DNA from: Escherichia coli
GTDB lineage: Bacteria > Pseudomonadota > Gammaproteobacteria > Enterobacterales > Enterobacteriaceae
Assembly: GCF_048403405.1 (NCBI RefSeq)
Contig: NZ_CP183129.1
Length of the DNA: 64,000 nt
Reading direction: 5' to 3' (one strand)
Of the stretch, positions 41,460 through 43,530 are shown piece by piece. The translations under genes were made by a program, and so were the position numbers. The notes below the pieces were generated by a model. That model searched no databases. It saw only the letters and a list, made by a program, of their open reading frames with translations, and was not told the origin of the DNA. How positions within the stretch are numbered: position 1 is the stretch's first letter; each line of letters opens with the position of its first letter.

Positions 41460-41563
41460 GCGCTCTCCCCTCTTGTAGATTGGCAACAGGATAGCAAAAC
41501 CCCAGCCCGGCCTCGACCTTCTGCACTTTCATCGCGCACGGATGCATGTTTTATGTGCAACTG

Positions 41564-41581
41564 TTTTGACCGTTTAGTCCA
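41564..41581. promoter_or_regulatory. Candidate RutR operator
   Basis: tttgaccgtttagtccac resembles RutR box TTGACCAnnTGGTCAA in rutR-rutA intergenic region. Confidence 0.5.
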
Positions 41582-41645
41582 CTTTTTTCCAGATATTTTA
41601 GACAACTTAACATTAACACATTAATAACATTCACTTTTTAAAAAC

Positions 41646-41661
41646 TGGCATCCGCTTTGCA
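41646..41661 (+). promoter_or_regulatory. Sigma-54 (-24/-12) promoter of rutA operon
   Basis: TGGCAtccgcTTTGCA: GG and GC elements with canonical spacing directly upstream of rutA. Confidence 0.8.
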
Positions 41662-41689
41662 AACAAACCATTACGCGGCTGAAAAGGAT

Positions 41690-43530
<1,841 letters not shown>

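Follow-up and report, generated by a model that had tools for sequence, protein, structure and literature searches.

Sigma-54/NtrC and RutR control of the Escherichia coli rut operon, a probable downstream start for RutA and a candidate RNA hairpin in the rutA leader

In the window analysed here (the whole 64,000-nucleotide stretch of Escherichia coli DNA), a sequence-only reading had pointed out a -24/-12 element lying about 30 bp before the rutA start codon then in use. This raised the question whether the rut transcript has a very short leader or whether RutA really begins further downstream, at a codon for MKIGVF, and how the region in front of both starts is controlled. The interval is the divergent rutR-rutA intergenic control region, within the E. 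coli gene order putA / rutR (- strand) / rutABCDEFG (+ strand). The region around it (about 41200-42000) was matched by 5,421 of 5,426 complete E. coli genomes, and the RefSeq annotation of a strain with a copy identical to the 401-bp query (41400-41800) lists putA, rutR, rutA, and rutB. Three stretches of coding sequence frame the region:

40821-41459, - strand: rutR coding sequence, TetR-family repressor of 212 aa, divergent from rutA (RefSeq annotation; Pfam TetR_N and TetR_C_3)
41747-42838, + strand: rutA coding sequence, 363 aa when read from the conserved MKIGVF... start (PGAP annotation, TIGR03612, PF00296)
42838-47190, + strand: rutB-rutG, the remaining operon behind the rutA promoter (RefSeq annotation of the strain that matched best, transferred to window coordinates)

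Comparison with rutAp of E. coli K-12 MG1655 (rutABCDEFG, b1012) showed the same locus with an identical -24/-12 motif and an identical RutR box, while the two NtrC-like sites described below differ by a single base, which falls into the non-consensus spacer of site 1. Beyond this, the window strain carries a few SNPs in spacer and leader, and nothing of substance. For the comparative analyses, one genome per species was scanned, and 80 of the approximately 590 rutA loci detected were retrieved, 79 of which allowed analysis of the rutA upstream region. More than 15 genera of the Enterobacterales are represented, including Escherichia, Enterobacter, Leclercia, Lelliottia, Kosakonia, Klebsiella, Raoultella, Phytobacter, Mangrovibacter, Buttiauxella, Pantoea, Erwinia, Winslowiella, and Tatumella. 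Across the 79 loci, the NtrC-like sites, the RutR box, and the -24/-12 element sit at fixed positions, with some lineages departing. A column-wise footprint of the 80 sequences peaks at the NtrC and RutR half-sites, TGGCA, TTGCA, the Shine-Dalgarno sequence, and the start codon.

The promoter is defined by two positions:

41646-41661, + strand: sigma-54 -24/-12 element (rutAp), TGGCATCCGCTTTGCA (motif, MG1655 identity, ChIP-seq peak OS10, genomic SELEX, conservation)
41672, + strand: predicted transcription start (motif centre at 41653 plus 19 bp)

The element is present as it had been reported, with GG-N10-GC spacing on the + strand; it points toward rutA, has two mismatches to the 12 specified positions of a TGGCAC-N5-TTGCW-type consensus, and ends 29 nt before ATG 41690, the start of the 382-aa form in MG1655, which bears out the stated distance of about 30 bp. 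A strict TGGCA-N6-TTGCA pattern had this element as its single match in the 64 kb (0.38 expected), and a loose sigma-54 pattern gave 10 matches where 15 were expected. As the loose consensus scans for sigma-54, RutR, and NtrC sites ran at or below chance, they were not used as stand-alone evidence; rather, the sites are considered real because they are identical to experimentally bound K-12 sequences and because their position is conserved in related loci. Indeed, a sigma-54 ChIP-seq peak (OS10; motif CTGGCATCCGCTTTGCA, PSSM 9.96) lies upstream of rutA (Bonocora et al., PMC4591121), and the rutA/rutR spacer was recovered by sigma-54 holoenzyme alone in genomic SELEX (Shimada et al., PMC8743547). 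A TGGC[AG]-N6-TTGC[AT] motif was found upstream of rutA in 79 of 79 analysable loci, usually starting 96-106 nt before the MKIGVF ATG (about 58 nt or more than 120 nt in a few lineages). The predicted +1 follows the rule used in PMC4591121, 19 bp downstream of the sigma-54 motif centre. A second published sigma-54 site near rutG (OA02, motif CCGGCATGAACAATGCG) is absent from the window at up to two mismatches.

Could the -24/-12 match nevertheless be a chance or non-productive sigma-54 site, with rut transcription beginning elsewhere? Matches to the loose pattern do occur at chance frequency, many E. coli sigma-54 sites are transcriptionally inactive, and the rutA promoter is listed as 'predicted', without experimental confirmation (PMC4591121); no experimentally mapped rutA transcription start was found in the literature searched. 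Against this, the motif lies between genes in the proper orientation and is occupied in K-12 both in vivo and in vitro, it recurs in every analysable locus together with a conserved enhancer at canonical distance, a scan of 41400-41800 detected no sigma-70-like promoter, and the rut operon is NtrC-dependent (PMC10891134). We therefore give a start elsewhere next to no probability and take the sigma-54 element as the rutA promoter. The same interval (41400-41800) was also free of + strand terminators in the scan, which makes an attenuator unlikely.

Upstream of the promoter lies the operator of RutR:

41566-41581, no strand assigned: RutR operator TTGACCGTTTAGTCCA, centre at about -98, with a gap of 6 bp to NtrC-like site 2 on its upstream side (published rutA site in reverse complement)

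The RutR operator consensus is the 16-bp palindrome TTGACCAnnTGGTCAA, and the published rutA site, TGGACTAAACGGTCAA, is a ChIP-chip target in which positions 4 and 13 are critical (Shimada et al. 2008, PMC2475637). TTGACCGTTTAGTCCA is the exact reverse complement of this site, agrees with 11 of 14 consensus positions, and has A4 and T13 intact; in the 64 kb, the RutR pattern at up to three mismatches yielded 2 matches (2.7 expected). A TTGACC...GGTCCA-like palindrome had previously been placed at 41564-41581. The palindrome is there, with the left half as described and starting, as stated, 80 bp upstream of TGGCA, but two extra T had been counted (the true start is 41566) and the right half reads AGTCCA instead of GGTCCA. 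Of the NtrC/RutR control proposed for it, the RutR part holds; the putative NtrC enhancer lies apart from the palindrome, in two 17-mers (41522-41559). Binding of RutR was demonstrated by EMSA and ITC (PMC10891134), and RutR represses rut until it is released by uracil (PMC2475637, PMC10891134). In most Enterobacteriaceae, the best RutR-box match is found at -79 to -81 from the T of TGGCA, and in most Erwiniaceae at about -88 to -90; one or the other of these offsets applies to nearly all related loci. The RutR site upstream of carAB P1 belongs to the same 16-bp operator family; however, at carAB RutR relieves PepA repression and is an indirect activator (PMC10891134), while at rutA it is a repressor located between enhancer and sigma-54 promoter.

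Further upstream, two NtrC-like dyads precede the operator, and an A/T-rich stretch separates it from the promoter:

41522-41538, no strand assigned: NtrC-like enhancer site 1, TGCACTTTCATCGCGCA, centre at about -142 from the predicted transcription start (3 mismatches; conserved offset)
41543-41559, no strand assigned: NtrC-like enhancer site 2, TGCATGTTTTATGTGCA, centre at about -121 (3 mismatches; conserved offset)
41608-41641, no strand assigned: A/T-rich spacer with direct repeat TAACATT..., between RutR box and promoter
41614-41626, - strand: IHF-like site TATTAATGTGTTA, one mismatch to WATCAANNNNTTR

Both NtrC-like sites had been missed by the earlier reading and are added here. Matches to TGCACC-N5-GGTGCA at three mismatches, as in each of the two sites, are by themselves at chance level (28 in the window, 33 expected), and the case for a putative enhancer is made by their 21-bp spacing, equal to two helical turns, and by their conserved position. 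In the window, the sites lie at -124 and -103 from TGGCA. The dyads are found at about -124/-103 in most Enterobacteriaceae and at about -131 to -135/-110 to -114 in most Erwiniaceae, with a few lineages departing, and in the majority of related loci the NtrC match at the site 1 offset (-123 to -125; about -131 to -135 in Erwiniaceae) ranks first or among the top three. The footprint peaks at the TGCAC and GCGCA halves of site 1, and the TGC and GTGCA halves are conserved at site 2. NtrC sites are likewise drawn in the rutA promoter scheme of the 2024 RutR paper, which restates the NtrC dependence of rut expression under nitrogen limitation (PMC10891134). The spacer has a few conserved columns (41615-41617 and 41622), and IHF-like matches at one mismatch occur about 1.5 times per kb, making them weak evidence. 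IHF may have a role here, and the A/T-rich spacer may allow looping. In classical sigma-54 promoters under NtrC activation, of which glnAp2 and glnK are examples, a GG-N10-GC promoter is preceded at about 100-140 bp by tandem NtrC sites, with a spacer of the A/T-rich or IHF type. The rutA region resembles them in its GG-N10-GC promoter, the tandem NtrC-like sites upstream, and an A/T-rich or IHF-type spacer permitting looping, but differs by a TetR-family operator inserted between enhancer and promoter, providing a second, substrate-specific input (uracil).

The arrangement suggests the following course of events. RNA polymerase with sigma-54 would wait in a closed complex at 41646-41661. When nitrogen becomes limiting, phosphorylated NtrC would occupy the tandem 17-bp sites at 41522-41559 (100-125 bp upstream), oligomerise, reach the promoter by looping over the A/T-rich spacer, and use ATP for opening, with transcription then beginning near 41672. 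RutR at 41566-41581, wedged between enhancer and promoter 6 bp from NtrC site 2, would hold down both the rut operon and rutR itself until uracil frees it; because of this site geometry, RutR may act by hindering NtrC assembly or looping. The resulting transcript would have a leader of about 75 nt, with RutA translated from ATG 41747 (MKIGVF) and ATG 41690 of the K-12 annotation forming part of a conserved 5'-terminal hairpin outside the protein. Taken as a whole, this account, namely the known sigma-54/NtrC/RutR control region with a leader of about 75 nt and RutA starting at ATG 41747, can be held with high confidence. The motif positions, the published occupancy of the identical K-12 sequence by sigma-54 and RutR, positional conservation, and the conserved start support it directly, while occupancy of these exact 17-mers by NtrC and initiation at exactly this +1 are what we infer.

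The two annotated starts of rutA differ by 57 nt. The MG1655 annotation begins rutA at ATG 41690 (382 aa, 18-nt leader), as, we take it, does the UniProt RutA entry, which is also the 382-aa form. The RefSeq (PGAP) annotation of most other strains places the start 57 nt further downstream, at ATG 41747 (363 aa). Two features distinguish these starts:

41690-41746, + strand: 19-codon N-terminal extension (MQDAAPR...) of the K-12 382-aa RutA (MG1655 annotation)
41737-41740, + strand: Shine-Dalgarno core GAGG, 6 nt before ATG 41747 (read from the sequence)

The downstream codon had been offered as the second of two alternatives, and the comparative evidence supports it. MK[IV]GVF with an ATG start was present in 79 of 79 loci, and an AGG ending 5-8 nt before this ATG in 75 of 80 sequences (exactly 6 nt in 54). 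In addition, the methionine at 41747 is position 1 of both TIGR03612 (RutA) and Pfam Bac_luciferase (PF00296), which begin at residue 20 of the long form and leave the 19 upstream residues outside both models. Should the K-12 annotation be right, at least in Escherichia, RutA would start at ATG 41690 behind an 18-nt leader and carry the 19 extra residues. MG1655 as the reference is annotated in this way, both the window and some other genera have the extension as an open, in-frame stretch, and an AAGGA precedes ATG 41690. However, this Shine-Dalgarno-like AAGGA ends only 1 nt before the ATG, and in most loci the extension is out of frame or interrupted by in-frame stops, including an E. coli-labelled genome of the sample (L005) in which 12 codons are followed by a TGA in frame; an extension that is open, in frame, and start-bearing occurs in only 13 of 80 sequences. 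Frame 0 relative to rutA is mildly enriched, with frames 0, 1, and 2 represented by 32, 13, and 19 of 64 loci, sequences that are not independent of each other. The U and G of AUG 41690 are moreover paired in the conserved apical stem predicted by RNAalifold (see below), and the family models and PGAP both favour 41747. RutA structures do not discriminate between the starts because both short (PDB 6SGG and 6SGL; 363- and 364-aa constructs) and long (5WAN; 382 aa) constructs were crystallised. Overall, the K-12 annotation is unlikely to be right. A start of RutA at ATG 41747 with a leader of about 75 nt is well supported by the sequence comparison, and the 19-codon stretch at 41690-41746 is most likely untranslated leader; some use of ATG 41690 in E. 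coli may still occur, since the long form is at least expressible (5WAN).

If the extension is leader rather than protein, why is part of it conserved? The block at 41686-41710, which includes ATG 41690, is far more conserved than its surroundings, with the consensus GGA-N(4-6)-GCAGGA(U/A)GCA-NN-GC-NN-CG. RNAalifold on the Enterobacteriaceae subset placed it in a predicted hairpin that starts one base after the predicted +1:

41673-41710, + strand: conserved 5'-terminal leader hairpin, containing ATG 41690 (RNAalifold, Enterobacteriaceae subset; covariance model)

In stem P1, 41673-75 and 41677-79 pair with 41704-06 and 41708-10 around a 1x1 mismatch, and an apical stem, UGCA-GGA-UGCA, is formed by 41691-94 with 41698-701; GGA motifs are located at 41686-88 and 41695-97. 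P1 is 98% paired in Enterobacteriaceae, with the outer pair A-U in 12 and G-C in 11 and the inner pair C-G, U-G, or U-A, whereby P1 was derived by eye before testing and the covariation rests on few independent events. The outer stem of P1 is also 99% paired in Erwiniaceae, where a second helix directly follows the hairpin, pairing GUGAAAC with a GUUUCAC located between the Shine-Dalgarno sequence and the AUG (80% paired; 6 of 7 pairs show changes in both partners). A pairing between pyrimidine tract and Shine-Dalgarno sequence in Enterobacteriaceae, 83% paired but mostly by G-U and with little covariation, was left as weak. A covariance model of the hairpin had one match in the 64-kb window (52 bits), recovered the hairpin in the same position in 56-59 of the 79 loci, and matched nowhere else in 472 kb. 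The short-leader lineages without the hairpin include the Enterobacter hormaechei group, some Buttiauxella, and two further loci (L044 and L050).

Thermodynamic support for the hairpin is weak: folding energies were not better than those of shuffled sequences (z = +1.25 for the E. coli leader, mean z of +0.33 for 60 hairpin segments), and P1 appeared in the minimum-energy fold of only 19 of the 60 segments. The hairpin was obtained in per-family alignments only, and RNAalifold on a mixed two-family alignment gave no consensus structure. Searches of Rfam with 41400-41900 returned no relevant match at E <= 10, and the literature searched held nothing relevant on a rutA leader element, an uORF, or a link to CsrA. 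The hairpin thus appears to be undescribed.

Conservation of the block could also reflect a short regulatory leader peptide (MQDAAPR...) starting at ATG 41690, which would act by translational coupling or ribosome stalling and be fused to rutA in E. coli. This was attractive at first: the ATG is conserved in Enterobacteriaceae, some variation falls on third codon positions (CCC/CCA/CCG, CGT/CGC), and in several genera the stop codon of the small ORF overlaps the rutA ATG as ATGA or TGATG. In Erwiniaceae, however, the start position is often TAG, TCG, CCG, GAG, or CAG, although the bases of the block persist. The residue encoded by codon 5 is hypervariable (A/T/V/M/P/S/L), the ORF has no constant length or end (5 to 22 codons, fusion, or out-of-frame entry into rutA), and the seemingly synonymous changes fall on the mismatch of P1 and on those of its positions that covary. 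The small ORF also has a Shine-Dalgarno spacing of just 0-2 nt, and no literature on such a leader peptide was found. Owing to the missing start codons and stop codons in Erwiniaceae and the scattered frames, the leader peptide was rejected as very unlikely. We give a similarly small probability to a DNA operator, bound by some protein just downstream of the promoter, as the basis of the conserved block at 41686-41710. Here, sequence conservation does exceed what the predicted folding energy would suggest, and TGCA-N3-TGCA is palindromic as DNA; but the outer pair of P1 retains complementarity and not sequence (AU or GC, as counted above), some of the U:G pairs are possible in RNA only, Pantoea has lost the TGCA palindrome (GCAGGAAGCA) and kept the GGA loop, and by inspection the block is unlike RutR, NtrC, or sigma-54 motifs.

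An RNA element in the leader is the more coherent reading of the block, and its core resembles binding sites of CsrA. The core is exactly CAGGAUG (41693-99) with the GGA as triloop of a 4-bp stem, and in 62 of 64 loci the variable base of CAGGA(U/A/C)G is U, A, or C. Another GGA is found 10 nt upstream, and both copies are no more than about 25 nt away from the predicted 5' end. The leader thereby shows the features by which CsrA sites are recognised: GGA occurs two or more times, a short hairpin presents at least one copy in its loop, and the context is CAGGA(U/A/C)G-like. In the known systems, the repeats of CsrB read CAGGA(U/A/C)G, and the flhDC leader has two CsrA sites at its 5' end, where CsrA shields the 5' end from RNase E (PMC7652899). 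The rutA leader is like the CsrB repeats in its CAGGAUG core and the GGA in a hairpin loop, and like the flhDC leader in its two GGA motifs near the 5' end. In contrast, simple occlusion of the Shine-Dalgarno sequence by CsrA is unlikely because the Shine-Dalgarno sequence of rutA lacks a GGA. The supplements of E. coli CsrA CLIP-seq list no peak in rutA, and the sole entry found there for the rut locus is a peak in the rutR coding sequence; rut was probably not expressed or induced under the conditions used. On motif likeness and comparative folding, the hairpin is a candidate CsrA or stability element. That it serves as a 5'-terminal post-transcriptional RNA element, most plausibly one that binds CsrA and/or protects the 5' end, is a tentative proposal, to which we assign clearly less than an even chance.

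The main finding, a sigma-54/NtrC promoter with a RutR operator, is an already known control region, both elements of which have been published, and to re-identify this textbook arrangement matters little by itself. The comparative evidence further argues that the rutA start in the K-12 reference should be moved 57 nt downstream, matching PGAP, a change that affects expression constructs, leader-length statistics for sigma-54 promoters, and the design of fusions. The leader hairpin is a modest new lead, a possible third level of rut control that would act post-transcriptionally, and gains added interest from the published CsrA CLIP-seq peak in the neighbouring rutR mRNA. If the hairpin is indeed such an element, the '382-aa RutA' of K-12 would be an annotation artefact arising from an AUG inside it, and carbon status would be linked to the nitrogen- and uracil-controlled rut operon.

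In the divergent control region between rutR and rutABCDEFG, the following features accompany the sigma-54 -24/-12 element (41646-41661, plus strand) and the RutR box (41566-41581):

41522-41538 and 41543-41559: two NtrC-like 17-mers, 21 bp apart
41608-41641: A/T-rich spacer that holds a direct repeat, TAACATTAACACATTAA / TAACATTCACTTTTTAA
41614-41626, minus strand: IHF-like site with one mismatch, inside the A/T-rich spacer
41673-41710, plus strand: conserved hairpin at the 5' end of the leader, carrying two GGA motifs

One of the GGA motifs in the leader hairpin is an exact CsrB-type CAGGAUG and lies in the triloop. 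Across two families, the hairpin occupied the same position in 56-59 of the 79 rutA loci analysable upstream of rutA; it matched no entry in Rfam, and a literature search returned nothing on it. A published CsrA CLIP-seq peak (peak_110; K-12 coordinates 1074528-1074704) falls inside the rutR coding sequence and maps to ~40997-41173 (minus strand) in the window. Because of this location, CsrA may reach the rut regulon, with contact through the rutR mRNA. Annotations of the rutA start conflict, placing it at 41690 (382 aa) in MG1655 (NP_415532.3) versus 41747 (363 aa) by PGAP in other E. coli strains, and both the 382-aa and 363-aa forms of RutA are represented among PDB entries.

Both NtrC-like 17-mers, absent from the sequence-only reading, lie at conserved distances from the -24/-12 element in different genera. 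A third, weak NtrC-like site (TGCA-N8-TTGACCA) emerges when the second 17-mer's right half is combined with the left RutR half-site, a hint of competition between NtrC and RutR. The A/T-rich spacer may act in enhancer looping, either by bending or as an IHF element. Elsewhere in the window, RefSeq annotation of the best-matching strain includes a hypothetical protein of 69 aa in the put control region, between putP and putA (~36555-36764, minus strand).

In Erwiniaceae loci (L045, L066 and others; ~2467-2500), GUGAAAC immediately 3' of the hairpin pairs with GUUUCAC in the stretch that separates the rutA SD from the AUG. This possible RBS-sequestering helix was 80% paired, with both-side changes at 6 of 7 pairs; its Enterobacteriaceae counterpart, a pyrimidine tract opposite the SD, is weak. 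Two retrieved loci (L041 and L042) carry longer, unrelated inserts in the leader. In eight others (L025, L026, L030, L043, L044, L046, L047 and L050), the sigma-54 motif lies merely ~58 nt before the ATG and the hairpin is entirely missing. These short-leader lineages, which include the Enterobacter hormaechei group and Buttiauxella, represent natural deletions that could be used as controls.
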